A stretch of 64,000 nucleotides of DNA from a virus (IMGVR_UViG_3300025645_000038:32001-96000); one strand, 5' to 3'. Counted from the first letter of the stretch, positions 4,279 through 35,957 are shown. Program-made: numbers and translations. Notes: generated by a model not told the origin, from the letters alone.

Positions 4279-4468
4279 TGATGAGGAATGGAAAATCCAC
4301 ATTACTGATGTCGAGCTTTTTGAACAGACAAAGAAAAAATTTGATTTGGGAAATTCTGTCACTATTTATTATGAAAGTGGCAGTTTATCCGAAGAAACAT
4401 CTTGGGATATAATAGTACCAAATAGCAAAATTAATAAAGTCAAAAAATTCATAAAGGATAATACTTGA
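4247..4468 (+). CDS. Hypothetical protein
   Basis: 73-aa ORF overlapping both neighbours, in operon orientation; no recognisable motif. Confidence 0.55.
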   Translation: MAKQKNIWKFNDEEWKIHITDVELFEQTKKKFDLGNSVTIYYESGSLSEETSWDIIVPNSKINKVKKFIKDNT

Positions 4469-7400: not shown

Positions 7401-7620
7401 TGTTTCTAACTTACCAGCTGCTAACTTCTTAGCAATCGATGAAGGTTGGGGAACTATGGATTCAGACAATTTAAACTCAGTTTATAATCTGTTTCAGTAT
7501 TTAAAAACTCAGTTTCAATTTACAATGATTGTTTCTCATATAGATTCTATGAGAGATGCTGTGGATACTTTATTAGAAATTAAGAAAGAAGATAAGTTTT
7601 CTAACGTATCTTTTGACTAG
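4465..7620 (+). CDS. Fused Mre11/SbcD (gp47-like) nuclease and Rad50/SbcC (gp46-like) ATPase
   Basis: Phosphoesterase motifs SDIQ, GGDIAH, AGNHD, FHG, GDIH. Walker A APNAQGKSS, coiled coil with hook CDYC, signature LSSGME, Walker B LAIDEG, H-loop IVSH. TTG start after AAGGA. Confidence 0.92.
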   Translation: MIKENVVKVPFRKLKHIHHISDIQIRNLKRHKEYEEVFERTYEEVKKHKDNAVVYIGGDIAHSKTEMSPELVDQLSRLFKNLSDICPTILIAGNHDCNLNNISRMDVLTPIVNNLQHPNLHYLKNSGVYKCADVKFVVWDVWEKEDDYIEAKDVEGDTKVVLFHGTVDKSETDLGFKLPSDVNISKFKGYDMGLLGDIHKRQHLNKEETISYCGSLVQQNHGEGLSHGYLLWDVPKRTSEYIEVPNDYGYYTINIDDGKVPDCPDIPQKARLRVRVANTTPSQLKKAMSLIHSKYGIKEVSVTKTDSIYSTDKVRGQHIAVGNIRDADYQFNLIDEYLKTNHFVDDATLIDIKKINEELNGRLPEDDVNRGVNWQVKKLEFDNMFSYGEGNIVDFTKLNGIVGLFAPNAQGKSSLLDTLSFCLFDRSSRAYKAINVLNNKKDWFSCKATLEVEGVEYFIERNAKKQSNGHVKVNVDFYTYDDANEKVSLNGDQRRTTDVNIRKLIGTYDDFIMTALSLQTNSTVFIDKTQKERKDLLAQFMGIGVFDQLYNLASDEIHDVQSLLKSFRDNNYDTDLAQIKESLTDFRKESRELTATKKEMVADKKKSDRKIISLTKKLKKVDDTVGSLDELEERKSSLNNSLASTDEKFGKLKTLSEQHKVEETELTEKINIFKENEVDKKFAQFEQYSLEKSNHQIEIDKLKIEVQHKLEKIEKLGNLEHDPNCDYCMSNPFTLDAIETREKLNEDKTLADTFLKKSSELETIINGLSHITAHKEQMDSCISDFNLLTSNISKVDSEQKLTTEKKKNLISQLAIIEDKINLYHEQEKDILFNKDLHNSIDAEQNDSDRLENDIEELDKKLQSVNGEIKVLETNRRNIMSNIKKVEELEGKYAAYQYYMDAIKRDGIPYELISKALPTIEGAVNDILAQIVDFSMILEMDGKNINCYIVYDDDNVWPLELSSGMERFISSLAMRVGLINVSNLPAANFLAIDEGWGTMDSDNLNSVYNLFQYLKTQFQFTMIVSHIDSMRDAVDTLLEIKKEDKFSNVSFD

Positions 7621-19800: not shown

Positions 19801-21616
19801 TACCGGATTTGGTATCTATCTCGATGATTTACCTTTTTTAAGTAGTATTGTGGGTGGTTTGGATAATGAGATAAAAAATCTTCAATATGGTTCTTTTATA
19901 GGTGGTGGTCAGTTAAATAAAATAAAACATACAGCAGCTGTAACTAATATAGGACAGGCAGGACTTTTCAATAGTATTGTTGGTGGCCAGTATAACGAAA
20001 TTACAAGTAATAACTCTGTTGGATCTTTTGCGGGTTGGAATTTTATTGGTGGTGGTAGTACAAACAAAATATCAGGTAGTGCATATTCTCTTATCGGTGG
20101 TGGTAATGTAAATATTATACATAGTAATGTTAATTATTCTACAATAGTTGGTGGAAGAACTAATGTGATTGGAAGTAGCACATCACAACCAGATTACTCT
20201 TTTATAGGTGGTGGATATCAAAATGAAATAACAGGAGATGAAGGAGATTATAATGTTGTAGTTGGTGGTGAAGATAATACAATAACAGGTACTGGTAATT
20301 CGAATTTTATAGGCAGTGGTGAAGATAATGTAATATCCAGTACTGGAAACTATAATGCTATTTTAGGTGGTGAAGCTAACACAATCGGTAGTAGTTACAC
20401 AGACACCTTTATCATAGGAAGTGGGATAACTGCAAATGCAAGTAATACAACTTTTGTTGAAGGTTTGAATGCTAGTGGTAATATAATCGTAGGTGGTACT
20501 GTAGATGGTATCAATATAGCTGATAGTTTAAACCAAGCAGTTAAGACAACATCCTCACCAACATTTGCTGCTGTAACTATAACTGGTGATATAGATTTAA
20601 ATGGAAACCTTGTAGGTGATGATGCTACCGATATAACAAACATTGAGTCTATATATGCAGACCACTTACGTTCAGATGCTGATGGTGCAAACAACTATAT
20701 TAATTTAGATGATAATGATTTTTCTTTTATTATTAACGGAAATGAAGTAGCATCATTTGAAGATAATACGATTAATTTAAACGATGGTGGAAATAATGTA
20801 GATGTTAGGATGGAAGCACAATCTGGTCAAGGTGGTGCATTTAGTAAGGCAAACTTATTTCATCTCGATGCCAGTTTAGGTATAGTTTGTATCGGTAACA
20901 CACCACAAAGTACAGACGCATCAAGACTTTTTCAAGTAACAGGTAATAGTGCTACAGACATCGTTAGGATATTTAACGATGGTAATAATGAAAATCGAAG
21001 TGGTATGCAACTAAGACTTGGTACTGATAATGGTACTGGTACAAATGAGTACATTATGTTTAGACGAGGTGATGAAACAGCAATTGGGTTAATTAGTGCT
21101 ACTAGTGGTGTTGTATCTTATGGAACATTTACAGGTGTTCACAATGCTAGTATTTTAGAATCAGATTCAGCATCAGCAAATGTTATTACTGGAATGCCAT
21201 CATCAAGTCAATATCACGAATACCCACAAGGAACTGTGGTTTCAATGGTAAGTTCTAGTTATGATGGTTCACTACAGCCAGTAAGTTTTGTAGTATCCTC
21301 ATCAGCTTATCAAGACAAAAGAGCATTTGGAGTTTATTTAGGTAGCCACAATTGGGATGATGACCAAAAAAGTCACGCTATAGATAAACACCTTATAATG
21401 TCTGTTGGTGATGGTTATGTAATGGTATGTAATCAAAATGGTAATATAGAGACAGGAGATTACATAACAACTGCATCTGGTTCAGGTGGATATGGATGTA
21501 AACAAAGCGATGATTTACTACACAACTATACAGTAGCAAAAGCATGTGATTCTGTGGATTGGAGTAATGAATCTACAACCTACAAACTTTTAGCTTGTAC
21601 ATATCATTGTGGATAA
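7865..21616 (+). CDS. Giant (4583 aa) repetitive tail fibre/host-attachment protein with two cupredoxin-like inserts and a C-terminal autocleaving chaperone-like domain
   Basis: Nine FFxG..QFxSGSxxxIEISSSxFHL repeats, many GxIGGFxI and GQITAS repeats, and a SFIGGGxxNxI solenoid near 19300-20450. Two HPF...CTAHxxM domains. C-terminal FTGVH...GDYITT...GYGCKQ...HNYTVAK...CTYHCG (Peptidase G2/IMC-like). Confidence 0.8.
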   Translation: MAIVKRFNRLLGLEKIDVLVDEKDKSRHIIISDMPESLPQGKSSFLIEVSPYMRKGIELQIDFIDSKGNSIYVEPVSNYLEGTSRTVSVEVYNTVAPGVATMIIVGELESIPLDAGNFSDTQEVPDDFKGVYNVRLTKEVIINTAEINVQPIKFYSSPRLTATEKRFGSMEREVVSGETTSSAFSIIGRPTQQEEFSIFESRESEIDSLGAGVTDIDGVPRPPDGDIKGDEADKERQKRHIKKKSIRASSRFKRSKRIRRRRSPEEYPYVFTINDSNHEFTTEEIGGEIKFSNIKNVYDTNQLDEAGLDSSVSFNVVSDTNDENFPTHYTASIAKLENNKSAYVNTPFTKQDKNGNYRLLPMEATGKVHYTKEPSASYSITNIVSYADVTLSHLRTFSGELFKAKVYVKAEGSFDDYKLLAEVPIESPELMINNNSVGIGERTGYFVSDTDLNTYWEKFGGTNGLSTATATSTASFDNSGSLDSAMVSGSISSFTDQIRFQQKDAYKFNLTKGIDYDLSFNAVGEKGTDGRALLMVYVSGSSLNQSNELHHDEKEGLDITEPSQYGKRMGVLEIEAGDNVKKEFGLIRHNFNSNSTGDAKVQFRIISGKWNLSDISVVPSTDTGFSPSFVNFKQELPPELIHKRPETLEFLTEFYDINNNLADEIAVTTGSVFTGANIVITGDDNVLSHNLFIGGDTTGSGIHMGGTSSTLPDDNYSEGATGSGFIRSLGYLGFESASNAALGGKKGFMIYSGSVLPNSGEDYKGVGLELVGASGSLKFRTSPSVFDVQADSFFVGKTTSQFISGSGEKIEISSSNFHLDNAGNVDMTGTITAQAGNIGGFNIEDSKLTAGIGNSAVTMSGADQLFRFGSGSQFDTTAVDGILFGKDTDGKYKFAVGKGDSYIVFDGTAVNIRSEDINVTASVFSIDVDVFKLSSNNLFISSSDGGFISAGNPRPSGITGTSKGIFINGRDPSDTKPKFLVGAADGNRISFDGDNIFMSSSGFFLGSSAQFVSGSDGNIEISSSNFHLDNSGNVIMSGKVTANEGSIGGFNITNDALSSANFLISGSSTGNNFFISSSNFNVKASGDVTASALDLTGGSVGGLTVTEGQIAVGSVLKLKDSGQITGSSVLFTGGKIGGFTIDADEIKSTNVLIDSANEKITLGSANAIKLQGGGTDNFIAMGSKSTFSNEGTGTAGIIIGMDGTNPQAEFVKNSTNYFIFDDGIDIQTDTLVASGSSITLETPKFFLGKKSTQFVSGSNGNIEISSSQFHLTKEGNVTGSAILLGNKGAGQFLQFVNNTLTVQGAITADSIAVPSAAPTPSSSISSGGLLTTVSASIGGFDITSAEIKDSDSNLRLKSSGQITGSKVLFNGGTIGGFTIDADEIKSGTNIALDSTNKKLTINNATFGNEGIQLEFNSGTPRLYVGDGSNEFVKYDGSSVDIRTKKLNASGSNITLETPKFFLGKKSNQFVSGSNGNIEISSSNFHLTPQGNVTMSGEITAAGGTIGGFIIGDELTSTAGTLILRGASGRITASNALITGDINANTITANTAGTIANFNINSTEIASSNNKLRLKANGQITASEAQITGKITATSGQIAGFTINGTKLQQGTSFNLDGNASADFFISSSDFQVTPSGDVSGSKVLFTGGTIGGWTLTSDRLNSLDDNFRISSAGSITIKNHSFGQSGFQVIENSGTTQFYVGNGSTRFIKFDGSNVDIGTEKLTASGSSINLGAPSFRLGSASNFISGSGGSLVIQNTGTTILSGSNVRIETPRFFFGKASSQFISGSDEKIEISSSKFHLKNNGDVIMNNITASNANVSGKMTATSGEIGGFTIGDDLSNSAGSTLKLKGSSGQITASAAQITGDITANTITANTAGTIANFQINSTEIKSANQNLRLKANGQITASAAQITGKITATSGQIAGFSISGNTLTATNFTLDASGKRITLGTGNNIFIADGDEGIQLGHATFASAPFSVTKAGLVKATSGTIGGWTLSGTQISSNNLIMDSAGVIQTSDYASNTKGWRLSPANGGEAEFQNVKIRGTLSTAVFEKETVNAVGGQLYIANSTAITGSATIAATAATMSVANVGGFVANEVLSAKKVSATGFATEYMLVQSASRDFPSSETDFRGKLFVVRGYNSGSTGDSGSLGDVANTSQSFEPGQVIVSTGKIGTGFIRLNANPNDVTTPYIDIVERTGSGVYDVDLKARLGDLSGLSSGLLYGNASPGFGLFTENVFLQGAITATTGSFTGKVHVGTTNGIVIDGNAKKLFQGTGTHNNQNTGFYMDSTGKFSLGDKLVWDSSTETLTITGTINITDGSGFATAASVSGSFPSATSVSASLNASSSALQTNINAVEANVSGAFTSTSASIATKIMTDASGKIVQTPSTSGLSGLILKSTHLGFASSGTFKAFIGNTGNFLFKNDDDNLISFGQSTSVGDGTTTSNLVIKAANAYLSGSSINLLTSRFFFGDSSNFISGSGGNLKIFSTGETTLSGSSVTIETPKFFLGKKGSQFVSGSNNQIEISSSKFHLNNDGNVIMNQITASDANVSGKITADSIVANTTGSIAGFTINSEEIRSSNNNLRLKASGNLTASNYLFNGNGVITGSVTIGTSATILGSLSAGSIATPSSGPPFKSEINSQGFARFTSASIAGWDIDSTSIASVDDKVIIDSSNKRITINNTSFGSAGIQLDYNSGTPRFFAGSATKFVKFDGSNVDIVTEKLTASGSSINLGAPSFKLGSSSNFISGSGGDLVIQTTGTTTLSGSAINIQTPKFYLGQGTSQFISGSDGNIEISSSAFHLDPANNTMVISGSITATTGKIGGMLLENNKLKSQYGDGSVITKIVTVEGSSKYYIDGVQQPTLELKVGNTYRFDNSHSSNGAHPFRFATSADGTQYNTGVSVVGTQGSGGTAYVQITVTADTPTTLYYKCTAHGSMGGQLNIVTIGTLELNGVNGQITGSKVLFEGGKISGSNLEINVPNVTMSGSSVDIRTSQFFLGSNSQFVSGSNNNIEISSSAFHLNPSNNTMTISGSITATDGNIGGFTIDSDEIKSTALAGETVNYTVTNNGSSNYLIDGVSKPALTFLVGNTYVFTMDSGVMSAHPFRIGTSANGSAITDGVTVTSTSLTIVVSASTPTSLYYFCTAHSGMGNSITVNAGIPKLLLNGELGQITASAAKITGDIVANTITANTAGTIGQFTLDSVGLKSSDGALVLSGSGQITASAAQITGKVTATSGVIGGWTVGSTLSATNILLDPATPKITLGSKGTLTDSNTGFYAGTDGIALGASSVFKVTSAGALTATSATVTGDIIANTITANTAGTIGNFSLNSVGIKSSNSKLILSASGQITASDAKITGDIVAENITANTAGTIGQFTLNSVGLKSSDGALVLSGSGQITASAAKISGDITITGGSLAGVTADTISGSVDAVSSSLAGRQTPFETQVVLSSGGMSLNKNDGTSLAEYGAITRIGLAAQEHISASSAGITIKDGSTVRGTFVAGGVTIGNTSQGHVSMSTADVSIKKDANNFAKIDSDSFDIVLNGQTTASFGGTTTIGSTVGRHLKLTGPALEIKTDANTTALSASAAGLEMSGKVVATEGEIGGFNVSGSRLLSTKIGVGDGGATVSSSVFMTPSIGSNAPLPAMGLHAKSGSLGSGFSIFAKNSSTQAGLDINIGEVSGFGVALADASSRGLRIINIKNPSNDSDELAIIGNGGVYNSSFTSTNTKSGFRFVATDDVVTFQVGKADGAHLKFSSADNLMYISSSNFFLGNSSTNFISGSNGNIEISSSNFHLSPLGNLTASNANFETVTIRGGTAANDVSSDSNQSFVGGGTFNLIQQSSFNSVIGAGAHNLINLGSDFSSILSGVSCSIDSHSDRSFIGAGSGSKIISSSNQSFLGAGAANTIKFASSSFIGAGINNSIVGDPSLTPNDVRVGDFPQDDFSAKESVIVAGSNNKITLAYQSFIGSGQNNVISGSVGTINTGFGIYLDDLPFLSSIVGGLDNEIKNLQYGSFIGGGQLNKIKHTAAVTNIGQAGLFNSIVGGQYNEITSNNSVGSFAGWNFIGGGSTNKISGSAYSLIGGGNVNIIHSNVNYSTIVGGRTNVIGSSTSQPDYSFIGGGYQNEITGDEGDYNVVVGGEDNTITGTGNSNFIGSGEDNVISSTGNYNAILGGEANTIGSSYTDTFIIGSGITANASNTTFVEGLNASGNIIVGGTVDGINIADSLNQAVKTTSSPTFAAVTITGDIDLNGNLVGDDATDITNIESIYADHLRSDADGANNYINLDDNDFSFIINGNEVASFEDNTINLNDGGNNVDVRMEAQSGQGGAFSKANLFHLDASLGIVCIGNTPQSTDASRLFQVTGNSATDIVRIFNDGNNENRSGMQLRLGTDNGTGTNEYIMFRRGDETAIGLISATSGVVSYGTFTGVHNASILESDSASANVITGMPSSSQYHEYPQGTVVSMVSSSYDGSLQPVSFVVSSSAYQDKRAFGVYLGSHNWDDDQKSHAIDKHLIMSVGDGYVMVCNQNGNIETGDYITTASGSGGYGCKQSDDLLHNYTVAKACDSVDWSNESTTYKLLACTYHCG

Positions 21617-21660: not shown

Positions 21661-24600
21661 ATGGATAAACTTACAGAATTTTTAACAAAACCATTTCTAA
21701 ACGAAGGAGCTAGAGATCCTGGCATCTTCAAAGCTATCTTTTTAGCTGGAGGACCTGGCAGCGGTAAATCATTTGTAGCACAAAAGTTATTCGGTATACC
21801 TGAAAAGATAAACGTATCTAAGACAGGTTTAAAGATGGTAAATCAAGATAGTGAACTTGAACTTTTGTTAAAAAAGTATTTTGGAACAACAGATATAGAC
21901 AATATGCCTGATGAGTTATTTGCTGATTTGACTGGTGTAGATAAAAAAGGTAAACCTGTAGATTATGATACAAGTGGATTAAGAAAGTTTGCTAAGTCAT
22001 TAAGTAAAGAAAGATTGAGATTATACACCAATGGAAAATTAGGTGTTATTATAGATGGTACAGGACACAACTTTAGTAAAATTAAAAAAAGAAGAAAAGA
22101 TTTGATGGATATGGGTTACGATACCTATATGGTTTTCGTAAATACCTCATTAAAGATTGCTAGGGAACGAAACGAAAAGAGAGATAGGGTTGTACCAGAT
22201 GCTATCGTTGAAAAAAGTTGGGAAGATGTTCAAGGTAATTTGGGTGCCTTTCAAGGTTTGTTCGGTGGTTCTAACTTTATGATTGTTCAGAATAATAAGA
22301 TGTTATCAGATTCTCAAATAACTAAACATTTTAAGATGTTGGTTAGCAAGGGTATAGATTCATTTTTAAAGAAACCGATTAAAAGTAAAGTTGGTAAAGC
22401 TTGGTTACGAAGAGAAAAGAAACATCAAAAGGTATTTAAAGATCCAGGCCAATCTAAGTTTTTTGAATCCATAAAAGTTCCTGTTGATATCGGTGATACA
22501 GTTCTTATGGGTAGATTTAAAAATAAAAAGGTAGTTGTTAAGTCTATCGATTATAATGAAAAGGGAGACTTACTTATCAATGGTAGAACTGCTTTAAAAT
22601 TTAGAATAATGAAGAAGGATACAAACGAAGAGTTTGGTGCACCTGCTGGTACATTACCATCACCAAGTCGTAAGATGGTAAAGAAGATGAAGAGAAAAGG
22701 TAACACTTCAGTTCCTTATGGTAGTGGTTATAAGAAAGTAAATGAAAATGATAAAGCTGAGTTATACAAATTGTATAGTATGGGTATGAAAGCATTTACT
22801 GGTAGTGCTAAACATAAAGAAATACTAAAGAAGATAAAAGTTTTAAGAAAAAAATTAGGAATGAATGAAGCTCAAAAGACTGTAACAGATAAAGTTTTTG
22901 ATAAGAAAAGAGAATCTGGTGCTTGGACAGTCATAGGACATATAAAAAAGAAAGGTAAATCTACCTTTCATGTTAGAGACGAAAAGACAAAGAAAAGATT
23001 TGATGTCAAATTGATGGAACAGAAACAAATCAAAAAAACTATCGGTGTATTTGGTGGAAGATTTCAACCATTTCATAGTGGGCATTTAGCCACATACAAT
23101 TGGTTAAAAACGCAGGTAGATGAGGTTTACATAACAACATCTAACATCAAACAACCACCAAGACATCCAATGGACTTTAAGGAAAAGGTTCGTCACATGA
23201 CAAAGATGGGTATAAAGAAGAATAGAATCATACAGGAGAAAACTCCGTATGTAGCAGTTAACCTATTGAAAAAATTTAATCCAGACACAACCGCTGTGGT
23301 TTATGCATTTGGGAAAAAAGATGCCGGTCGCCTCAAAGGTGGAACTAAGAAGAGTGGTGGTAAGACTTACTATCAAGACTATAAGAAGAATAAAAACAAC
23401 TTAGAAGGTTTTGAAACACATGGTTACTATATCACCGCTCCACAGTTCGGTTCGGTTAGTGGAACACAGATGAGAAAACTTTTAGGTGACCCGAAGATTG
23501 ATGATAGTGAAAGAGAGAAAGCATTCAAAAAAGTATTTGGATACTATGATAAAGGTATCTACAATATGATGACTAATAAGTTTAAAAAGTTATTTGAGTC
23601 TTACGATTTAACAGATGAGTTAATAAAAGAATTTTTAATAGAAGCAACTGGTACAACAGGTGGAAACTTAGACGATGGTCCTTCTACATTCTATACGGAT
23701 TATCCTACATACAAAAAGACTTCTAAAGAATGGTTGGATTCTATATATTCTGATGCTGGTTGGAAAATTCTTGATTATATTTTGGATGACAATGCTAAAA
23801 ATTCTATAGAAAAAAACTATCATTCTGTCCCACTTACTTTTTTAGATCACGGACAACAAGGTGGTTCTGTAGGAGCTGTAAATAAATACAAAAATTGGAT
23901 GAGTGAAGTTGTAAAACCATTAGGTTGGCAAGTTGTGAGTTGGATGGGAACTGAAGCCGCTATTAATAATATCATTGGTAGTCTTTTTGCAGCTGGTGCT
24001 GATGGTGATGAGTACACAGAAGAAGATTTCAAACTTACTGAAAAGATAAACTTAGACAAAGAAGTTAAACTATTATTAGAAGGTGGGGCATATGGACACC
24101 TTAATCATCCGTTTGATGATAAAAATTTGACATTTTCAGATTTTAAAACACTAATTATTAATACACTACAAGGTAAACTTGATAGTGAAGGAGCAGTCAC
24201 AGAAAAAACAGATGGTCAAAATATAATGGTAAGTTGGAAGGGTGGAAAACTTATCGCCGCTAGAAACAAAGGTCACATCAAAAACCACGGTGCTGGTGCA
24301 TTAGATATCAACGGAATAAAGAATATGTTTGCTGGTAGAGGTGAGATAGAAAAAGCCTTTGTATATGCTATGAGAGATTTACAGAAAGCGGTTGGTGGTT
24401 TAAGTGATGCTCAAAAAAATAAGATATTTGATGAGGGTAAGAAGTTTATGTCTTTAGAGGTTATATATCCTAAGACAGCAAATGTGATACCTTATGATAA
24501 ATCTTTACTTCAGTTTCATGGAACCATAGAATATGATTCTGCTGGTTCTCCTATAGGTGAGGATAGAGGTAGTGCGAGAGTATTAGCTGGTATGATAAAA

Positions 24601-25305
24601 CAAATAAATCAAGATGTACAGAAAGCGTTTAAGATTGAGAAACCTTTTATATCTAAGTTACCACAAGTAAAGGACTTTAGTAAAAGACAAAGTTACTTCT
24701 TAGGTAAGTTAAATAAATTACAGAATGAATTTAACCTAAAGGGTAATAATACACTATCAGATTATCATCAAGCTTATTGGATGGAGTATATTTATAATGC
24801 AGGAAAACAATTTAAGTATAATGTTCCAAATAACATATTAGTTAAATTAACTCGTAGATGGGCATTTTTAGACAAGTCTTACAAAATACCACAAATTAGA
24901 AAAGATATAAAGAATGAAAAGTTTTTAAATTGGATATTAAAAACAGACAAAATGGATTTAAAAGGGTTACAAAAGAAACATATTAGAGATTGGGAAGTTC
25001 TTTTCTTTGAGTTGGGTGCTGAAATATTGAAAAATCTTAGTGATTTTATAGCAGCTAATCCAGATAAAGCAGCTCAACAAATTCGTAAGGATTTAGTGAA
25101 AGCAGTTTCAAAAGTCAAAACTTCAAAAGATCCAAAGGTACTAAACACATTAAAAACTCAATTGGATAGATTGAAAGCTATCGGTGGTTTAAAATCTGTA
25201 GTTCCGAGTGAAGGTATTACTTTTGTATTTAAAGGAAAGTTATACAAGTATACTGGTGCTTTTGCTCCAGCAAATCAAATCTTAGGTATGTTAAAATTCG
25301 TATAG
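21661..25305 (+). CDS. Multidomain protein: zeta-toxin/AAA_33-like P-loop kinase, HxGH nucleotidyltransferase and ligase-like (KxDG) domain
   Basis: GGPGSGKS, IIDGTG and MVFVNTSLKIARERN (kinase). GGRFQPFHSGH and VSGTQMR (cytidyltransferase-like). GHLNHPFD, TEKTDGQN, SEGITF, LYKYTG (covalent nucleotidyltransferase-like motifs I, IV, V). Confidence 0.8.
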   Translation: MDKLTEFLTKPFLNEGARDPGIFKAIFLAGGPGSGKSFVAQKLFGIPEKINVSKTGLKMVNQDSELELLLKKYFGTTDIDNMPDELFADLTGVDKKGKPVDYDTSGLRKFAKSLSKERLRLYTNGKLGVIIDGTGHNFSKIKKRRKDLMDMGYDTYMVFVNTSLKIARERNEKRDRVVPDAIVEKSWEDVQGNLGAFQGLFGGSNFMIVQNNKMLSDSQITKHFKMLVSKGIDSFLKKPIKSKVGKAWLRREKKHQKVFKDPGQSKFFESIKVPVDIGDTVLMGRFKNKKVVVKSIDYNEKGDLLINGRTALKFRIMKKDTNEEFGAPAGTLPSPSRKMVKKMKRKGNTSVPYGSGYKKVNENDKAELYKLYSMGMKAFTGSAKHKEILKKIKVLRKKLGMNEAQKTVTDKVFDKKRESGAWTVIGHIKKKGKSTFHVRDEKTKKRFDVKLMEQKQIKKTIGVFGGRFQPFHSGHLATYNWLKTQVDEVYITTSNIKQPPRHPMDFKEKVRHMTKMGIKKNRIIQEKTPYVAVNLLKKFNPDTTAVVYAFGKKDAGRLKGGTKKSGGKTYYQDYKKNKNNLEGFETHGYYITAPQFGSVSGTQMRKLLGDPKIDDSEREKAFKKVFGYYDKGIYNMMTNKFKKLFESYDLTDELIKEFLIEATGTTGGNLDDGPSTFYTDYPTYKKTSKEWLDSIYSDAGWKILDYILDDNAKNSIEKNYHSVPLTFLDHGQQGGSVGAVNKYKNWMSEVVKPLGWQVVSWMGTEAAINNIIGSLFAAGADGDEYTEEDFKLTEKINLDKEVKLLLEGGAYGHLNHPFDDKNLTFSDFKTLIINTLQGKLDSEGAVTEKTDGQNIMVSWKGGKLIAARNKGHIKNHGAGALDINGIKNMFAGRGEIEKAFVYAMRDLQKAVGGLSDAQKNKIFDEGKKFMSLEVIYPKTANVIPYDKSLLQFHGTIEYDSAGSPIGEDRGSARVLAGMIKQINQDVQKAFKIEKPFISKLPQVKDFSKRQSYFLGKLNKLQNEFNLKGNNTLSDYHQAYWMEYIYNAGKQFKYNVPNNILVKLTRRWAFLDKSYKIPQIRKDIKNEKFLNWILKTDKMDLKGLQKKHIRDWEVLFFELGAEILKNLSDFIAANPDKAAQQIRKDLVKAVSKVKTSKDPKVLNTLKTQLDRLKAIGGLKSVVPSEGITFVFKGKLYKYTGAFAPANQILGMLKFV

Positions 25306-25314
25306 GAGTAGGTT

Positions 25315-25845
25315 ATGGGATATAGTAAAGAGTCAGAAAGACAAAACAAAGCATTAGGAGATTTACTATCTGGTAAAACTCCTGAAAAAAGAGTAATGGT
25401 TGGTTACAAAGGTAAAGAACAAGAAAGTGGTGACCAAATCAGTAGACTTTCAGATATTATGAAAGAGGCTAGAATGCCTATGTTTTGTCCTAAGTGTGAT
25501 GTTATTATGAAAAAAAGACTTGATAATAAGTTTTGGAGTATGTTTGGTCATTGTTTTGATTGTCAGGTAAAAATAGAGAACAAGATGAGAATTGATGGTA
25601 CATATAAAGAATGGGAAAAAAATAAAATAAAAGAAAACAAAATATCTTTTGTAAAAGAACAAATACAGGCTATAGAAGAATGGAAAGATATGAAAGCTCC
25701 TGAATTTTACAATAATGTTGGTGTTAACGAACCAATGTTAGAAAAAGAAAAATGGGATGTTAATGTTGAAAAAATTCAAAAAGAAGCTAAAGAGGCTTTA
25801 GAAAAATACACAGAAGTTTTAGAACAATTGGAGAACGAAAAATGA
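25315..25845 (+). CDS. Hypothetical protein with a C4 zinc finger
   Basis: CPKC...CFDC; AGGAG/AGGT upstream. Confidence 0.65.
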   Translation: MGYSKESERQNKALGDLLSGKTPEKRVMVGYKGKEQESGDQISRLSDIMKEARMPMFCPKCDVIMKKRLDNKFWSMFGHCFDCQVKIENKMRIDGTYKEWEKNKIKENKISFVKEQIQAIEEWKDMKAPEFYNNVGVNEPMLEKEKWDVNVEKIQKEAKEALEKYTEVLEQLENEK

Positions 25846-26150: not shown

Positions 26151-26530
26151 AGATAGCTGTAAAAATATTAAAATACTTTTTGATATCATTCTTCGTGTTG
26201 TCAGTTGCTAGTAGTCAATCTTACACACAAGCTGAAGTATTGGAGATGATAAAAGAAAGAGACTTACAGTGGGAAGGTAAAGTAGACAATGCAAATAATC
26301 TAATTGCGTCTCAGAAAGAAGTCATTGATGACTCTGATAAGTTGATAAAAGAATTGGAAAGTCAAGTAAAAACTGATTCTTTACTGCTTTTTAAAAAAAG
26401 TGAACAGATTGAGTTGTTGAAAGAAAGAGATGAGGCTAATCAAAAGATGATTAGGTTAGTAAAACCAAGGCTATGGGAACATAGATACCTTTGGTTTGTT
26501 GTAGGAATTTACTTAGGGAAGCTATTATGA
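26147..26530 (+). CDS. Exported/membrane coiled-coil protein
   Basis: Signal-peptide-like N-terminus (FLISFFVLSVASS), coiled coil and hydrophobic C-terminus (YLWFVVGIYLGKLL). Confidence 0.6.
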   Translation: MKIAVKILKYFLISFFVLSVASSQSYTQAEVLEMIKERDLQWEGKVDNANNLIASQKEVIDDSDKLIKELESQVKTDSLLLFKKSEQIELLKERDEANQKMIRLVKPRLWEHRYLWFVVGIYLGKLL

Positions 26531-28104
26531 AACCAGGTGTTCTAAAAGATGTGATAAAAAAAGAGTACTCTAAGTGTGCTAAAGACCCTATATACTTTTT
26601 AAAAAAGTATTGTGTGGTTCAGCACCCAATGAAAGGTAAAGTTCCTTTTCATCTTTATCCTTATCAAGAAAAGTCTCTTGCTACATTTGAAGAACATAGA
26701 TTTAACATCATACTAAAAGCTCGTCAGTTAGGATTATCTACATTGACTGCTGGTTACTCTCTTTGGATGATGACATTTCATCAAGATAAAAACATATTAG
26801 TAATCGCAACTAAACAAGATACTGCTAAAAACTTAGTTACAAAGGTTAGGGTGATGCACGCTAACTTACCATCTTGGTTAAAACAAAAATGTACGGAAGA
26901 TAATAAACTATCTCTACGATATAATAATGGTTCACAGATAAAAGCTGTTTCAAGTGGTGAAGATAGTGGTCGTTCAGAAGCTCTATCTCTACTGATACTT
27001 GATGAGGCTGCTTTCATTGATAAGATTGAACCGATATGGGCTGCTGCTTCACAGACACTATCTACTGGTGGACAATGTATTGCACTATCTACACCAAATG
27101 GTATAGGTAATTGGTTTCATAAGACTTGGGTTGGTGCAGAAGATGGTAGTAATGATTGGAACTTCATTAAACTTCATTGGAATTTGCATCCTGAGAGGAA
27201 TGATGAGTGGAGAGCAGAACAAGACAAACTATTAGGCCCGTCATTAGCGGCTCAAGAATGTGATTGTGACTTTCTAACCTCTGGTCAAACTGTTATAGAT
27301 GGTGTTATACTAGAGGAGTATAGAGAAAAACAGACTCAAGACCCTTTAGAAAAAAGAGGAGTTGATAGTAACCTTTGGATATGGCAACCACCTAACTATA
27401 CAAAAGATTATGTGTTGAGTGCTGATGTTAGTAGAGGAGATGGCTCGGATTACTCCGCATTTCATGTTATGGAAGTAGAGACTATGGAACAAGTAGCAGA
27501 ATACAGAGGTAAGATATCAACAAAAGATTTTGGAAACTTATGTGTAAATACAGCAACAGAATATAACAACGCCTTATTAGTAGTTGAAAATAACAATATA
27601 GGTTGGGCTACATTACAACAATGTATTGATAGAGGTTATGAAAACCTTTTTTATACAAGTAAAGATTTAAAGTATGTAGATACAGAACATCAAATAAATA
27701 ATCGATATAGAAACCAAGATAAGAATATGGTAGCTGGTTTTTCTATGACAATGAAGACAAGACCTCTGGTAATAGCTAAATTAGAAGAATATTTTAGAGA
27801 AAAGTCAGTAATTGTTCGTTCAAATCGATTAATTGATGAGTTGTTTGTATTTATATATAACAATAATAAAGCTGAAGCGATGCAGGGATACAACGATGAT
27901 TTAGTGATGAGTTTTGCTCTCACTCTTTGGGTAAGGGATACTGCATTGAGATTACGAAATGAAGGAATAGAACTAACTAAAAGAACTTTAAGTGGTGTAA
28001 CATCACAGATGATACCACAAAAACCAACCAATCAAACGAACTCTTGGGAAATAGAAGTAGGACCCAACGGAGAAAAAGAATCGTTAGATTGGTTACTTAA
28101 CTAA
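26527..28104 (+). CDS. terL: Terminase large subunit (T4 gp17-like)
   Basis: LKARQLGLST (Walker A), LLILDEAAF (Walker B), LSTPNG, nuclease SADVSRG and DDLVMS. The ATG at 26527 overlaps the upstream stop (ATGA) and is preferred to 26491. Confidence 0.95.
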   Translation: MKPGVLKDVIKKEYSKCAKDPIYFLKKYCVVQHPMKGKVPFHLYPYQEKSLATFEEHRFNIILKARQLGLSTLTAGYSLWMMTFHQDKNILVIATKQDTAKNLVTKVRVMHANLPSWLKQKCTEDNKLSLRYNNGSQIKAVSSGEDSGRSEALSLLILDEAAFIDKIEPIWAAASQTLSTGGQCIALSTPNGIGNWFHKTWVGAEDGSNDWNFIKLHWNLHPERNDEWRAEQDKLLGPSLAAQECDCDFLTSGQTVIDGVILEEYREKQTQDPLEKRGVDSNLWIWQPPNYTKDYVLSADVSRGDGSDYSAFHVMEVETMEQVAEYRGKISTKDFGNLCVNTATEYNNALLVVENNNIGWATLQQCIDRGYENLFYTSKDLKYVDTEHQINNRYRNQDKNMVAGFSMTMKTRPLVIAKLEEYFREKSVIVRSNRLIDELFVFIYNNNKAEAMQGYNDDLVMSFALTLWVRDTALRLRNEGIELTKRTLSGVTSQMIPQKPTNQTNSWEIEVGPNGEKESLDWLLN

Positions 28105-29971: not shown

Positions 29972-30826
29972 ATGAGTTCAAAGACAAAACACTCAAAGAT
30001 CCGTAATACTGGTATCTTATTTGAGTTGTTGACAAGACAAATTACAGTTGATGTCCTTAATAATGATAAAAAAGGTTCAGCGGCTAATATATTAAAGGAG
30101 TTTTTCAATAATAAGACTCAATTAGGAAAAGAGTATGAATTGTATAGAGTTTTGACTGTAGAAAATTATACATCTGAAATAAAAGCTAATCATTTAGTAG
30201 ATGCTGTAGTAAAGGCTCGTCAAAAACTAAATGGTTCTCAATTAAAAAGAGAAAAATACAATCTAATTAAAGAAATAAAGAAGACTTATAATATAAATGA
30301 CTTCTTTATGGCTAGGATTCCAAATTATAAAGTAAATGCTTCAATATTTAAAGTCTTTGATTCTAATACTGATGGAAATCCAGCGTCTGAAGTAGATAGT
30401 AGGTTCACAATCGTAGAGCATGTAACAAGAAAACAGATTTCTAACAAAAAAGAAGACAAGAAACTTGTTGAGGGCTACAAAAAGCAAGAAAAAGACTTGA
30501 GATTACTTGCTTATGGTATATTAGTCGAAAAATTTAACAAAAAGTACAGTTCTTTAAGTAAATCACAGAAAAAACTACTTAAAGAGTACATAAATAACAT
30601 TTCTAACACCAATTCTCTTAAAGAGTTCGTAGAAACTGAAACAATTAAGGTAAAATCTAAACTCCAATCGTTTTTACCTAAAGTTAGTGATAAAGTTACT
30701 AAGATTAAGCTTCAAGAAGCTATTAATCAAGCAGAAACTCTTATGAAGGGAAGAATTGTTGAAGATAAACAAGTAGTTACGCTAATGAGGTATTATCAAT
30801 TAGTTAAGGAGCTTGAAAATGTCTAA
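29972..30826 (+). CDS. Head-module protein of unknown function
   Basis: Predicted helical 284-aa ORF starting MSSKTKHSKIRNTGILFELL; GGAG at 29962 favours the ATG at 29972. Confidence 0.7.
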   Translation: MSSKTKHSKIRNTGILFELLTRQITVDVLNNDKKGSAANILKEFFNNKTQLGKEYELYRVLTVENYTSEIKANHLVDAVVKARQKLNGSQLKREKYNLIKEIKKTYNINDFFMARIPNYKVNASIFKVFDSNTDGNPASEVDSRFTIVEHVTRKQISNKKEDKKLVEGYKKQEKDLRLLAYGILVEKFNKKYSSLSKSQKKLLKEYINNISNTNSLKEFVETETIKVKSKLQSFLPKVSDKVTKIKLQEAINQAETLMKGRIVEDKQVVTLMRYYQLVKELENV

Positions 30827-31247
30827 AATGGATAAACTCAAAGAGATAATCAGAGAGTTAATCAAAAGGGAACTTGATGAGGCTTCTACTTCAGCTGCCA
30901 CACCAGGTTACCAAACACCTTACGCATTTAGTGGTGGTAGAAGTAAAGATAAGAAGAAAAAGAAGAAGATAGCTACAAACTCTACTGGATACAGTAAGGT
31001 AAATGAGGGTAAGTATCACGATTATAGAAATGACGATACTTTATCACCAAAACAAAAAATTGGTCGTTCAATGAGAGAGATTAGAGATAGTCTTAACGAA
31101 TTGAACAAGTTAGTAAAGATGAATGTTCGTCTTAAAAATGAATTAAAAGTTGATTCTAGGTCATATTGGAAAAATACACATAAGGCTTTAAATAAAATAA
31201 GTGAGAGGTTAGTAAAACTAGCAAACAAAGTTGGTCAATTACAGTAG
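30819..31247 (+). CDS. Putative head-internal protein
   Basis: AAGGAG 7 nt before ATG 30819; MDKLKEIIRELIKRELDE leader, KVNE linker, poly-Lys tract. Confidence 0.6.
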   Translation: MSKMDKLKEIIRELIKRELDEASTSAATPGYQTPYAFSGGRSKDKKKKKKIATNSTGYSKVNEGKYHDYRNDDTLSPKQKIGRSMREIRDSLNELNKLVKMNVRLKNELKVDSRSYWKNTHKALNKISERLVKLANKVGQLQ

Positions 31248-31440: not shown

Positions 31441-32054
31441 TGATATCACTATTAGAAATAGCACATAGTATGAATGAGGCTGATGACGATAAGTATGTAT
31501 CTATCGGTTTTGGTAGGTTCAAACTTAAAGGTAAGGAAGATGACGATGATGCTGATGTCTATGCAAAAACCGACTCTGGTGAGTATGTAAAATCTGCTGA
31601 CCAAGAGAGTGATGACGATGGTGGTGAAAAAGACAAACCAGAACCACAGGGTAGTAAGTTAAGTGGTAGTGATTTTGAAAGAGATAGTAGTGACAACGAA
31701 GAAAGTGATGATGTAGAAATATCAGATGCTAACTCTGGTCCTATCGATACGGATGATATTATGGACATGTTAAAAAATGATTCTGAAGTTGTTGATAAGA
31801 TGGGCGATGATGTGTATTGGGATGGTATGGATTTAGTTAGTTCAAAGTATGATGATGATACAATAGCATCTATACCTGATGATGCTGATATGACTTTAGG
31901 AGATTTGAAAAAACAAATAATGGATTACGAAGAAGAACAAGACGAATCAATCAAAGTAATCGATGGAAAAAAATATAAAGCAATAAAGGAATCAAAAAAG
32001 AATCCTCGTATATTAAAAGAAATTTATGAGAGAACATTTAGGAGTTTAAAATGA
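31440..32054 (+). CDS. Acidic putative head-internal protein
   Basis: MISLLEIAHSMNE leader; very Asp/Glu-rich; immediately before the prohead protease. Confidence 0.6.
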   Translation: MISLLEIAHSMNEADDDKYVSIGFGRFKLKGKEDDDDADVYAKTDSGEYVKSADQESDDDGGEKDKPEPQGSKLSGSDFERDSSDNEESDDVEISDANSGPIDTDDIMDMLKNDSEVVDKMGDDVYWDGMDLVSSKYDDDTIASIPDDADMTLGDLKKQIMDYEEEQDESIKVIDGKKYKAIKESKKNPRILKEIYERTFRSLK

Positions 32055-32653
32055 AACAATTAATCGTAGACTATTTACCATTTGAGGTAGGGCCTGACCA
32101 GATAAACGAGGCTATGAAAGAGAACAACGGAAAGTTAGTTGTTAAGGGTGTTCTACAAAGAGCAGATACCAAAAATCAAAATGGTAGGGTATATCCAAGA
32201 GAAATTTTAATGCGTGAAGCAAAGAAGTATTCCGATGGATTCGTAAAACAAAAAAGAGCTATGGGAGAACTTGACCATCCTGAATCATCTGTTGTGAACT
32301 TACAAAATGTATCACATAACATTACAGATATGAACTTCAATGGTGATGACCTAGTTGGTACAGTAGAAATACTTACAACTCCAAGTGGTAACATACTAAG
32401 AGAATTATTTAAGAATGGAATTAAACTAGGTATCTCTTCTCGTGGTATGGGTTCGGTTGAATCTGTTAATGAGGGAGAGACACAACAGGTTGGTGATGAC
32501 TTTGAACTTATTGCTTTTGACTTTGTTTCTAATCCGTCTACACATGGTGCTTTCCTATATCCAATGAATGAGAGTGTTGATAACAATATTTCAGTTCGTG
32601 ATACTAAGTATGGTAAAGTAGAAGCAGTCATTAACGATATAATGAGAGGCTAA
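32051..32653 (+). CDS. Prohead core protease (T4 gp21-like)
   Basis: NQNGRVYP, GELDHP, VSH, LGISSRGMGS, FDFVSNPS. Confidence 0.95.
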   Translation: MKQLIVDYLPFEVGPDQINEAMKENNGKLVVKGVLQRADTKNQNGRVYPREILMREAKKYSDGFVKQKRAMGELDHPESSVVNLQNVSHNITDMNFNGDDLVGTVEILTTPSGNILRELFKNGIKLGISSRGMGSVESVNEGETQQVGDDFELIAFDFVSNPSTHGAFLYPMNESVDNNISVRDTKYGKVEAVINDIMRG

Positions 32654-33510
32654 TGTCAAAAAAGAGAGACTATAAAGATGAGTATAAGAAATTTCAATCT
32701 TCTACAAAGTCTAAAAAGTATAGGGCAGAATTAAATAAGTACAATCGTAAGAAAGGTACTTATGGAAATGGTGATGGCAAAGACGCCTCACACAAAGGGG
32801 GAAAGATAGTGGGATTCGAATCACAATCTAAAAACAGAGGAAGAGCTGAAAAGAGTCGTTTAAAGAAAGAGGCTGTTCTAAATGAAAATCCAGCAGTGAT
32901 TGCAACTGCAGCTCGTATGGCTATACAAAATGCTAAGGGTAAAAAAGTATCAGTCAATACTGCTCGCCAATCTAAATATGCTAGTACAGACCCATCAGCT
33001 CACAAGAAAGCTAAAAGTATATTCCAAAGAATTAAAGATAAGTTTAAAAAGAAAGATGATAAACCTAAAAAGAAATCAGCTCCTACCACAGCAGCTGACT
33101 TTCGTAGAAGAAGAAGAGGTGAGTCTATAAATGAGAATGATAAAGTAAAGGTTCTTAAACATCTTATCAAAAGAGGTAATAATCCTAAAGATGCTAAAAG
33201 GGATGTTCAAAAACTTTATAATAAAGTAAATAAGATGTATAAGAATGCATCACCATCTAAAAAAGCCGAAATCATTTCTTCTCTATCTGCTTATAAAATG
33301 GAATCTGTAAATAAAGCTAATAATATAGATAAGATAAAAGATATTGTCAAGAAAAAACAATTCAAAAGAATCGGTGGAGTTATTATAGACATGCAAACTG
33401 CTAATGCTATAATGCAAGTACATAAAGCATTAAGTGGTGCTAATAAAAAGAAGTATGAGAAGTTGTCTATATCAAAGATGGCATCTATTGCATACAAACT
33501 GATAAAATGA
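32653..33510 (+). CDS. Basic multi-module protein with an N-terminal HNH-like module
   Basis: RDYKDEY...DGKDASHKGG...SKNRGR resembles minimal phage HNH-like proteins. Modules are separated by VLNE, SINE and KME. Confidence 0.55.
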   Translation: MSKKRDYKDEYKKFQSSTKSKKYRAELNKYNRKKGTYGNGDGKDASHKGGKIVGFESQSKNRGRAEKSRLKKEAVLNENPAVIATAARMAIQNAKGKKVSVNTARQSKYASTDPSAHKKAKSIFQRIKDKFKKKDDKPKKKSAPTTAADFRRRRRGESINENDKVKVLKHLIKRGNNPKDAKRDVQKLYNKVNKMYKNASPSKKAEIISSLSAYKMESVNKANNIDKIKDIVKKKQFKRIGGVIIDMQTANAIMQVHKALSGANKKKYEKLSISKMASIAYKLIK

Positions 33511-33869
33511 TAAAACTCAAAGACATATTACTAGAACATCCAGACGATTACGCTGATAAAGATGCTGATGATATAATCAAACTTTTGAGAAGAAAACAAA
33601 AGTATGACCAGTTTGATGGTATAGGAACAACTGAGGCTAAAGACCACGAAGGTAAGATGGCTAAATCTCAATTAGAACGTTCTATGAAGTATGCAAAAAT
33701 GATTTACAAAATAGTTGATAATGTTGGTAATGGTGGTGAAGTATCAATGCCAGCTTGGGTTCAGTCTAAACTAACCAAATCTATGGATTACTTACAATCG
33801 GTATATAATTACTTAGATGGTAAGGATGGTTTAGAAGATAAATTTCAAAAAGAAAATTCAAAAAAGTAA
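33507..33869 (+). CDS. Putative head-internal protein
   Basis: MIKLKDILLE leader followed by a DHEGKMAKSQL...PAWVQSKLT helical module. Confidence 0.6.
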   Translation: MIKLKDILLEHPDDYADKDADDIIKLLRRKQKYDQFDGIGTTEAKDHEGKMAKSQLERSMKYAKMIYKIVDNVGNGGEVSMPAWVQSKLTKSMDYLQSVYNYLDGKDGLEDKFQKENSKK

Positions 33870-33893: not shown

Positions 33894-34529
33894 ATGGCTA
33901 ACATTAAATTAAAAGATTTACTAAACGAAATGACAGTAGCTGGTGGTATTGTTTCTGAAAGTCCTTGGACAAAGAACGAAGAAGAAAAACCATCTATAAA
34001 TGTAAAAGAATTAGTAGAATCAATTCGTAACTTTAACTCTATAGGTGAATCCATCTATGGTAAAGGTAGCTTAAAAGAAGTAGCTGAAAGTCTTTCATCT
34101 ATTGCTGAAGGTGCTGCTCAACATACTCTATCTGAAGCAGGTGATATGTTTGATAAGGTTACAGTTAGTCGTAATATGAAAGAACTTACAGGCTTATCAA
34201 AGCAATTTGGTAAAGTATCTAGCGAAGCTAACTCTCTACAAGAAAGAATGAGTGGTTTATACGAAGACATGGGTAACATCTTAGGTAGATACTATGAGAT
34301 TGGTGAAAAGCATGTGCCAGGTCATGATGATGAAGATTCAGAAGACAGAGGTGATATGGATGAAGCTGAAACAATGATGTTTAGAGAAGAAGATGATTAC
34401 AAAGCATTCTTCAAAAAAGCTATGAAAAAATTTAATGTATCTGATATTGAAGATATGAGTGATGAAGATAAAAAAGACTTCTTCAACTATGTAGATAGAA
34501 ACTATAAGGCGAAAAACGAAAAAGACTAA
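33894..34529 (+). CDS. Putative prohead core/internal protein
   Basis: MANIKLKDLLNE leader, helical core, acidic linker; strong AAGGAG. Confidence 0.6.
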   Translation: MANIKLKDLLNEMTVAGGIVSESPWTKNEEEKPSINVKELVESIRNFNSIGESIYGKGSLKEVAESLSSIAEGAAQHTLSEAGDMFDKVTVSRNMKELTGLSKQFGKVSSEANSLQERMSGLYEDMGNILGRYYEIGEKHVPGHDDEDSEDRGDMDEAETMMFREEDDYKAFFKKAMKKFNVSDIEDMSDEDKKDFFNYVDRNYKAKNEKD

Positions 34530-35942: not shown

Positions 35943-35957
35943 TTGGGAGACAATAAA

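Follow-up and report, generated by a model that had tools for sequence, protein, structure and literature searches.

A candidate virion-packaged RNA-repair polyprotein in the head gene cluster of an uncultured marine T4-like virus

We analyzed a gene in a stretch of 64,000 nucleotides (IMGVR_UViG_3300025645_000038:32001-96000, hereafter the window) from the genome of an uncultured marine T4-like virus, whose source record in IMG/VR is 164,845 bp long and 79% complete. The frame at 21661-25305 (+ strand) is open throughout, is the sole long frame at its locus, and encodes a protein of 1214 residues (~138 kDa). In this protein a short N-terminal leader is followed by a P-loop kinase, an HxGH nucleotidyltransferase and an RNA-ligase-fold domain, with small modules between them (Table 1). 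Comparison with relatives leads us to favour, with restrained confidence, the reading of this gene as a late head-cluster cargo polyprotein: an RNA-repair kit that would be packaged in the head, cut by the prohead protease and probably injected with the DNA, because its leader and joints resemble the head-loading tag and cut sites of T4. The parts of this reading differ in strength. RNA repair is the best-supported function of the kinase and the ligase, and we consider it likely; capsid targeting with removal of the leader seems on balance probable; cutting at the internal joints is a tentative proposal.

The leader is the first line of evidence. Residues 1-16 lie outside the kinase fold, with a predicted local distance difference test score (pLDDT) below 50, and contain two hydrophobic-x-Glu sites, L4-T5-E6 and L13-N14-E15. 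All 26 full-length relatives begin with M-x-K-L-T-x-[FWY]-L-x-x-P-F-L-x-E or a near variant, whichever module follows (kinase, beta module, transferase or other). About 100 stand-alone kinases begin with a leader of 10 residues, MIKL[KIMV]DL[IL]xE, and continue with G[AV]RDPGIFK as the protein does after E15; since both leaders directly precede this same segment, the forms of 15 and 10 residues are interchangeable. Divergent members with an N-terminal transferase have 15-residue leaders such as MNELSKFLVESILLE or MGNLIKEWVKGILTE. The capsid-targeting sequence (CTS) of T4 is MKTYQEFIAE (PMC8442874), and mutagenesis showed that targeting is sensitive to changes at its residues 4 and 7, and processing to changes at residues 8 and 10 (PMC9026906). 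At these positions the short leader carries L4, [IL]7, L8 and E10; the long form found in the window is likewise hydrophobic at 4, 7 and 8, but has Lys at position 10 and ends at E15. Its first ten residues, MDKLTEFLTK, are close to the N-terminus of the packaged T4 enzyme Alt (MELITELFDE). The leader thus has the features of one carried by capsid-targeted cargo, which it shares with the T4 internal proteins IPI-III and Alt: it is short, hydrophobic at 4, 7 and 8, ends in hydrophobic-x-Glu ((L/I)-x-Glu), and stays constant while the cargo varies.

The same type of leader is found elsewhere in the head cluster. In the six frames of the window, the pattern KL[TK][DEK][FWYIL][LI] occurred four times against 0.05 expected, always at the N-terminus of an open reading frame (ORF): in the gene itself and in three ORFs that flank the protease gene (Table 1). 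A looser pattern, searched over the whole 165-kb genome, returned the same four ORFs and no others. As these patterns were written after the leaders had been seen, we also built a matrix from other loci only, to lessen circularity. Its best match in the six frames of the window was the gene's own leader, and its second best was a peptide inside the same protein, at the joint between the transferase and the region that we call X, within a segment of low pLDDT (residues 647-685). This internal copy of the leader suggests that the chain grew by fusion of genes already bearing tags.

The joints between modules are the second line of evidence. In T4, gp21 cleaves head proteins after (I/L)-x-E, and the initial annotation of the stretch had placed the boundaries of this protein at x-x-E motifs. 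We built an AlphaFold model of residues 1-810 from 26 relatives (mean pLDDT 66), in which the folded parts were the kinase, the beta module, a helical hairpin, an alpha/beta module and the transferase (limits in Table 1), whereas residues 1-16, 257-273, 313-360, 401-403, 647-685 and most of 692-810 were unstructured. Eight of the nine sites named in the annotation are hydrophobic-x-E and lie in, or at the edge of, low-confidence segments; the other, TNE (residues 321-323), does lie in a linker but has Thr at P3. The sites gather in low-confidence linkers: of the 21 [LIVMF]-x-E sites of the protein, 9-11 are inside or at the edge of the unstructured segments, which make up 20-22% of its residues (binomial p 0.002-0.014; Fisher test given Glu, 0.04-0.10). 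Among relatives, four unrelated modules start straight after hydrophobic-x-Glu in 73-100% of cases, far above the background of 1.8% per position. This holds for 142/142 kinases, in at least eight unrelated upstream contexts; for 101/122 transferases, with the Glu 10-14 residues before GRFQPF (mode 12); for 59/74 beta modules; and for 120/164 ligase modules (starting with GGAxGH), the remainder of which have mostly LLM or LLC.

The third line of evidence is genomic position. The gene is set in a one-strand late region of the 165-kb genome. Three small ORFs lie 3' of it, followed by genes identified with Pfam as TerL (26491-28104; Terminase_6N) and a T4-type portal (28116-29921; Portal_T4); beyond the portal there are several small ORFs, the S77 prohead protease, and scaffold and capsid genes. 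With Peptidase_S77, Portal_T4 and Terminase_6N, the phage encodes a T4-type head module, and the gene does lead the terminase-portal block, as had been proposed. We compared 80 IMG/VR loci whose ligase domains are 56-96% identical, and in every locus reaching that far the module chain was followed by an ORF of 176 residues (d1), TerL and the portal. The same gene order before terminase and portal was found in Microcystis phage Mel-JY01, whose protein (WWT39297.1) consists of transferase and ligase and has the leader MGKLINILLSE. The modules nearly always share one frame (the kinase is a separate gene in two of the 80 loci), and their order is shuffled between relatives, with the beta module preceding the kinase in some and following it in others. 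Position in a head cluster is an accepted indicator of packaged enzymes (PMC9503650; PMC5512222).

The kinase domain matched Pfam AAA_33/Zeta_toxin at residues 26-190, above the cut-off. Its motifs are a P-loop (GGPGSGKS, residues 30-37), D63, DGTG (132-135) and a lid, RNEKRDR (170-176), and the P-loop, D63 and R170/R174/R176 are invariant. With a 16-sequence profile, the best matches in PDB were the kinase of C. thermocellum Pnkp (4mde/4gp6, E 4.5e-4) and then L-seryl-tRNA(Sec) kinase (PSTK). The top Foldseek match was again 4gp6 (E 2.9e-7, TM 0.70 on target), and hhalign matched the domain to T4 PseT with E 9e-5, aligning RNEKRDRVVP with RNSKRGTKAVP. It has the P-loop, the catalytic Asp after strand 2 and the RxxxR lid of polynucleotide 5'-kinases, which are also its nearest relatives. 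Judging from the matches to CthPnkp, PSTK and T4 PseT and from the conserved P-loop, D63 and lid arginines, this domain belongs with the polynucleotide and tRNA kinases, and not with the ribosylnicotinamide kinase of NadR.

No match to residues 660-1214 was found in Pfam, NCBIfam or PHROGs, nor any Pfam match to the ligase domain even at E<=10, and when the ligase alignment was run as a profile against PDB, the matches were chance ones only, such as ribosomal protein eS6. A separate model of residues 791-1214, of high confidence (pLDDT 90.1; predicted template modelling score 0.86), nevertheless had the ligase fold on which the initial annotation had staked its reading of the C-terminal domain. 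When this model was aligned with VIA to 48,161 chains, ranks 1-9 were all RNA ligases (Z 8.9-7.7, 185-211 aligned residues), the top 12 were RNA ligases or RNA-ligase-type enzymes, and ranks 1-24 were all proteins of ligase or capping fold, with DNA ligases and capping enzymes following the RNA ligases down to rank 24. The matches included Naegleria NgrRnl (5cot; Z 8.9, 185 aligned residues), Trl1 (6n0t; Z 8.3, 195), T4 Rnl1 (9do4; Z 8.2, 187), Trl1-LIG-KIN (9r3w; Z 8.2, 211), REL1 (1xdn; Z 7.9, 199) and T4 Rnl2 (1s68; Z 7.9, 187). The first 14 Foldseek matches were likewise RNA ligases, with weak E-values.

The domain starts with GGAYGHLNHPFD (residues 808-819), which belongs to a nearly invariant GGAxGHxxHPFD segment. 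Its invariant or near-invariant residues are K849-T-D851-G852 (motif I), R868-N869, R893, E933 (motif III), H953, E1184-G1185 (motif IV) and K1196 (motif V). In alignments of 24 and 38 sequences, the D and G of motif I are invariant and its K is at least 90% conserved; E933, E1184-G1185 and K1196, which are invariant or at least 90% conserved, lie on strands 138-145, 395-400 and 403-407 of the model. The hhalign register was correct for T4 Rnl1 and Rnl2, placing K849, ARNKG and E933 with motifs I, Ia and III of both: TEKTDGQ was paired with TKEDGS (Rnl1) and EKIHGTN (Rnl2), ARNKG with KSKGS and AKRTG, and LEVIYP....V.PY, which contains E933, with FEFVAP....V.AY of Rnl1. The motif I lysines paired with K849 are K99 of Rnl1 and K35 of Rnl2. 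A helical insert of ~180 residues (about 1000-1180) separates motifs IIIa and IV, and in the model no OB or other domain is appended after motif V. On its modelled fold, the domain sits in the ligase superfamily but outside all named RNA ligase families: no family model for Rnl1-Rnl5 (Pfam RNA_lig_T4_1, RNA_ligase and others) matched it, and it has no signature appended domain.

A search of 1.84 billion cluster representatives (50% identity) identified 1856 clusters with relatives of the ligase domain, 621 of them at E<=1e-30, and 150 of these relatives were listed for further comparison. In nearly all 150 the domain is C-terminal, either alone in proteins of 404-442 residues or behind up to 1500 residues. 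Its Atlas clusters are 98-100% viral, and 24% of the members of one cluster carry the label DUF6267; our literature search found no paper on the family, on Mel-JY01 or on DUF6267. By BLAST, the commonest partner among the 150 representatives is the transferase (104/150, ~70%), and the kinase occurs in seven. A Pfam scan of 38 long members found CTP_transf_like in 24, AAA_33 or Zeta_toxin in five, DUF5661 in four, the PolyA_pol head and RNA-binding domain (CCA-adding type) in three, HD in two, and 2_5_RNA_ligase2 (2H), KTI12 and a SprT-like domain in one each. Modules also occur as separate genes in relatives; stand-alone kinases are known from pelagiphages and methylophages (Pelagibacter phage HTVC008M and the Methylophilales Melnitz phages). 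In phage RNA repair, RNA ligases are typically accompanied by kinases, CCA-adding enzymes, HD domains and 2H phosphoesterases (PMC7824862; PMC9503650). Since the partners within the family are these companions, we read the kinase and the ligase as a pair that would heal and seal RNA ends, most likely those of tRNA. Of the roles suggested by the initial annotation, end healing and sealing is therefore the best supported, given also the nearness of the kinase to bacterial and T4 Pnk, whereas nothing points to modification of host proteins.

The transferase matched Pfam CTP_transf_like at residues 463-547 (42.7 bits against a cut-off of 21) and has the motifs of the HIGH superfamily, GRFQPFHSGH (466-475) and SGTQMR (600-605). 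Foldseek matched it to NaMNAT and NadM. The NCBIfam equivalog models for NMNAT and NadR scored well below threshold (best 28 bits against a cut-off of 127, others lower). From its sequence the domain is an NMNAT-resembling nucleotidyltransferase of the HIGH superfamily. Its role may be to regenerate NAD+ where defences deplete it, or else to adenylylate a different phosphate acceptor; we make no choice between the two. New chemistry could also lie behind the tight pairing of ligase and NMNAT-like domain, such as RNA joining linked to NAD, or the adenylylation of phosphate ends of RNA. In eight relatives in one alignment (A4: L039, L043, L044, L063, L066, L069, L079 and L082), the two His of the HxGH motif are shifted by one position, giving GPHH, and the rest of the motif is invariant; among enzymes of the HIGH superfamily such a shift is unusual.

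In the mechanism that we propose, the protein would be made together with the head proteins, and its leader would dock it to the scaffolding core, as the CTS does for IPI-III and Alt in T4. The S77 protease would cut the leader off after E6 or E15, and probably also cut the exposed joints after E269, E362, E403, E453, E646/E661 and E807, which would free a kinase of ~29 kDa, a transferase of ~22 kDa and a ligase of ~46 kDa. The pieces would be ejected along with the DNA. In the next host, and ahead of any phage gene expression, the kinase would phosphorylate 5'-OH ends and the ligase would reseal RNAs, the likeliest being tRNAs that anticodon nucleases have broken. More speculatively still, marine T4-like phages may use a common grammar, leader-module-hydrophobic-x-Glu-module, in which the site serves as tag end, cut site and point of module exchange, and whose kits would neutralise anticodon nucleases, and perhaps defences that deplete NAD, from the very start of infection. 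The packaged and protease-matured protein of the initial annotation thus receives comparative support from the leader, the shared tag, the joints and synteny; its presence in virions, cleavage, injection and enzymatic activities are predictions.

Several results weigh against this reading or parts of it. Over its full length the protein shows no enrichment of [LIVMF]-x-E (21 sites, compared with 16.9+-3.4 in shuffles; p=0.14), and about a quarter of the ligase modules have LLM or LLC in place of L-x-E. The counts at module starts come from homologous positions and therefore represent few independent events (four modules and several leader classes), and the joint motif could be a relic of the leaders of once-separate genes and not a working cut site. 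Regarding the chemistry, no 3'-phosphatase or cyclic phosphodiesterase that would heal 3' ends was found in the protein, and in the 79%-complete genome the PNK3P, 2H, CCA-adding and Tpt1/KptA families were not found, with one sub-threshold match to HD. The VIA scores of the ligase model (Z 8-9) are close to the noise band of the tool, though the list is uniform, and the hhalign matches are weak (E 0.15 to T4 Rnl1, 0.028 to T4 Rnl2). For the transferase, the PDB profile match to an archaeal NMNAT (E 2.4e-6) extends only over positions 7-61 of 202, and many relatives carry GPHH (F-G-P-H-H) where the protein has HSGH (F-H-S-G-H).

Part of this would be expected if the protein were an RNA-repair enzyme of several domains that is made during infection and stays unpackaged in the cytoplasm, comparable to T4 Pnkp and Rnl1, with the N-terminal peptide and the Glu-ending joints as leftovers of gene fusion, an oligomerisation helix or translation-start context. 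The same domain identities fit such an enzyme, as do the missing protein-wide enrichment, the ligase modules without Glu and the modules that exist as separate genes, and T4's own repair enzymes are not known to be packaged. We nonetheless consider it rather unlikely: it leaves unexplained that the leader types are shared by unrelated modules and three head-cluster ORFs and by nothing else in the genome, that an invariant Glu outside the fold precedes the kinase across so many unrelated contexts, and that the gene keeps its place beside the terminase-portal block in every locus that reaches this block. The identity of the C-terminal domain raises a different question. Fold alone cannot name its substrate, because DNA ligases and capping enzymes share motifs I-V with RNA ligases, and both are present in the VIA list at Z 4-7. 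That the domain is a DNA ligase, an mRNA-capping-type guanylyltransferase or a protein or nucleotide adenylyltransferase, so that the protein acts on DNA ends or caps, is however improbable, given that RNA ligases hold the first nine VIA and the first 14 Foldseek ranks, that no OB domain follows motif V, that the hhalign register, weak as it is, fits T4 Rnl1 and Rnl2, and that the partner domains are RNA or tRNA enzymes.

A further possibility, raised in the initial annotation, is NAD+ salvage of the NadR type, in which a ribosylnicotinamide kinase would work with an NMN adenylyltransferase and the C-terminal domain would be an accessory unrelated to RNA joining. The nearest solved relatives of the transferase are indeed NMNATs; like NadR and NadM it is a HIGH-superfamily adenylyltransferase with the motifs GRFQPFHxGH and SGTxxR, here in the same chain as a P-loop kinase. 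Flavobacterium phage immuto has a 907-residue protein annotated NadR in a comparable region, and phage systems of NadR and NadM are known (PMC7824862; PMC9503650). Nevertheless, the kinase matches CthPnkp, T4 PseT and PSTK and not the NadR kinase, the order of the domains is reversed with respect to NadR, the protein has no helix-turn-helix or Nudix domain, and the NCBIfam NMNAT and NadR models all stay far under their cut-offs. Neither NAPRTase nor NadV was found in the 79%-complete genome, and it is the ligase domain that forms the family's conserved core, accompanied by CCA, HD and 2H modules. We rejected this explanation, which is very improbable, on the affinities of the kinase and the missing NadV.

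The candidate RNA-repair cargo has its closest likenesses in three known systems: in mechanism, the CTS-bearing cargo of T4 cut by gp21; in enzymology, T4 Pnkp with Rnl1 and bacterial Pnkp; in architecture, the polyvalent proteins. IPI-III and the ADP-ribosyltransferase Alt of T4 have a CTS and are processed by gp21, and Alt is an earlier case of an enzyme that enters the cell together with the DNA (PMC9026906, PMC3012670, PMC8442874). Both phages have a gp21-type S77 protease, and the genes are in late or head clusters. Unlike the T4 cargo, which consists of single small proteins, the cargo here would be one chain of 138 kDa that unites three enzymes and has a candidate cut site at each joint, and its leader has 15 residues, relatives using the form of 10. 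T4 Pnkp and Rnl1, which counter the anticodon nuclease PrrC, and bacterial Pnkp/Hen1 resemble our protein in combining a Pnk-type P-loop kinase with a lysine-adenylate RNA-ligase fold. They differ from it in 3'-end healing, as the protein has no HAD or metallophosphoesterase domain for this step; compared with the T4 enzymes, moreover, its ligase has the helical insert, lacks an appended C-terminal domain, and has an NMNAT-like main partner. The T4 Pnkp and Rnl1 genes lie away from the head genes and are early and, as far as is known, their products are unpackaged, whereas the gene described here is in the head cluster and has a leader.

Polyvalent proteins of phages and conjugative elements (Iyer et al. 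2017, PMC5512222) string several effector domains into one large chain whose gene adjoins virion genes; such chains are predicted to travel with the DNA and in some cases to be processed. Our protein is similar in having three enzyme domains in one chain beside terminase and portal. Pfam found none of the polyvalent marker domains in it (MuF, portal fusion, zincin-like peptidase, ADP-ribosyltransferase). In the sections of PMC5512222 that were searched, the repertoires are MuF, portal, zincin-peptidase, ADP-ribosyltransferase and nuclease domains, and the 2H domains of polyvalent proteins are stated never to have been observed with RNA ligases. In the passages searched of later surveys by the same group, the packaged domains described are ADP-ribosyltransferases, Macro, NADAR and Nudix; RNA ligases, kinases and NMNAT-like enzymes are not among them (PMC7824862; PMC9503650). 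Unlike the polyvalent proteins so described, the family has an RNA-ligase-fold domain as its conserved core, and for loading and processing it seems to rely on the T4 grammar of CTS and prohead protease.

T4 Pnkp and Rnl1, which are used against anticodon nucleases, are to our knowledge not packaged. If capsids do carry repair enzymes, counter-defence could start before phage transcription, and the logic of T4 Alt and the internal proteins, which concerns proteins delivered singly, would come to include entire sets of enzymes. The grammar of leader and joints would also offer a simple sequence rule to predict packaged cargo in uncultured T4-like phages. The ligase-fold family itself, very large, essentially viral, without functional annotation and with an unusual inserted-domain architecture, is of possible enzymological and biotechnological interest.

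The three enzyme domains of the initial annotation were all recovered, the kinase and the transferase by Pfam and the ligase-like domain by its modelled fold, and its motifs lie where it had placed them: GGPGSGKS starts at residue 30 (nt 21748), HSGH is at residues 472-475 (nt 23074-23085), EKTDG at 848-852 (nt 24202), and SEGITF...YKYTG at 1183-1199. Among the smaller modules, the beta module was found by BLAST in 51 of the 150 homologues at varying positions: N-terminal, ahead of the kinase, or just ahead of the ligase (e.g. P0046, P0035 and P0095). Its consensus is GDT[IV]L.G[RK]FKNKK.VVK.I...G...ING, with a weak match to KOW (E 0.041), and its sequence suggests that it may be an RNA-binding or docking module. 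The helical hairpin is separated by MNE403 from the alpha/beta module, which is followed by LME453; no family match was found for these two modules (residues 361-452). The X region, which adjoins the ligase in a subset of relatives, had pLDDT below 50 with the shallow alignment used.

Table 1. Features of the 1214-residue protein and of leader-bearing and processing genes in its neighbourhood. Coordinates are those of the window; a slash marks a candidate cut.
Feature	Residues	Coordinates	Strand	Basis
N-terminal leader (MDKLTEFLTKPFLNE), candidate capsid-targeting propeptide	1-15	21661..21705	+	Conserved, outside kinase fold
P-loop polynucleotide-kinase-like domain	21-256	21721..22428	+	Pfam, PDB profile search, Foldseek, hhalign
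Small beta module (GDTVLMGRFKNKKVVVKSI...ING), mobile in family	274-312	22480..22596	+	AlphaFold strands, pLDDT 55-73
Helical hairpin and alpha/beta module	361-400 and 404-452	22741..23016	+	AlphaFold pLDDT 72-84, dip at 401-403
HxGH (HIGH-superfamily) nucleotidyltransferase, NMNAT-like	459-646	23035..23598	+	Pfam CTP_transf_like
Internal leader-like peptide (YDLTDELIKEFLIE/A), transferase-to-X joint	648-661	23602..23643	+	Second-best matrix match, score 15.3 vs background -33+-8
X region, DDG...GW...W motif set, accessory	662-802	23644..24066	+	BLAST in 33/150 homologues
RNA-ligase-fold covalent nucleotidyltransferase (~410 residues)	808-1214	24082..25302	+	AlphaFold model, VIA, Foldseek, hhalign
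ORF with leader ...MDKLKEIIRELIKRELDE/A, candidate head-core or cargo protein		30813..31247	+	Leader pattern
gp21-type prohead serine protease (Peptidase_S77), presumed processing enzyme		32051..32653	+	Pfam PF03420 E 1.9e-27; phrog_207 head maturation protease E 3.8e-53
ORF with 10-residue leader MIKLKDILLE, as on stand-alone kinases		33507..33869	+	Leader pattern
ORF with 10-residue leader MANIKLKDLLNE, as on stand-alone kinases		33894..34529	+	Leader pattern

The ORF d1 (25315-25845, + strand), which starts ~10-20 nt after the ligase gene in nearly all 80 loci, has a zinc-ribbon-like CxxC...CxxC motif (CPKC...CFDC). It had no Pfam or PHROG match; it might work alongside the ligase, or be a terminase-like protein of small size. 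A scan of genome contigs with a single protein also identified one locus (L083; NHHP01000001.1 40856-58088) on a 71.9-kb contig binned in the metagenome-assembled genome 'Candidatus Pelagibacter sp. TMED166'. Its chain runs kinase, beta module, transferase, X, ligase, d1, TerL and portal, most modules being 73-93% identical to ours and the X region and d1 lower. Most likely the contig is from a phage and was binned with SAR11, either a hint at the host or plain mis-binning.

The initial annotation had placed the gene after a putative late element. In the window, TATAAATA, the late-promoter motif of T4, and its complement show no enrichment (11 matches, with 11.4 expected), and TATAAATA is absent from the + strand upstream of the gene, so that this element is unsupported. 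The octamer TATTTATA occurs on the + strand at 21630, 29931, 33870 and 34774, which is 24-30 nt before the starts at 21661, 29960 and 33894, and ~116 nt before the start at 34890. With the octamer and its complement found 11 times against 11.4 expected window-wide, these occurrences may be fortuitous, or they may mark a late promoter element specific to the lineage.

Directly upstream of the gene lies an ORF of 4583 residues (7865-21616, + strand), with no Pfam family at E<=0.001. Another of 1051 residues (4465-7620, + strand) fuses a calcineurin-like phosphoesterase (Mre11/gp47-like) to AAA_23/SMC_N (Rad50/gp46-like), functions that belong to two separate genes in T4. Finally, the major capsid protein (35943-37595, + strand) contains ATQLIKE67/ASG, at a position comparable to the maturation site of T4 gp23 after Glu65; this is consistent with a protease of T4-like specificity in this phage.

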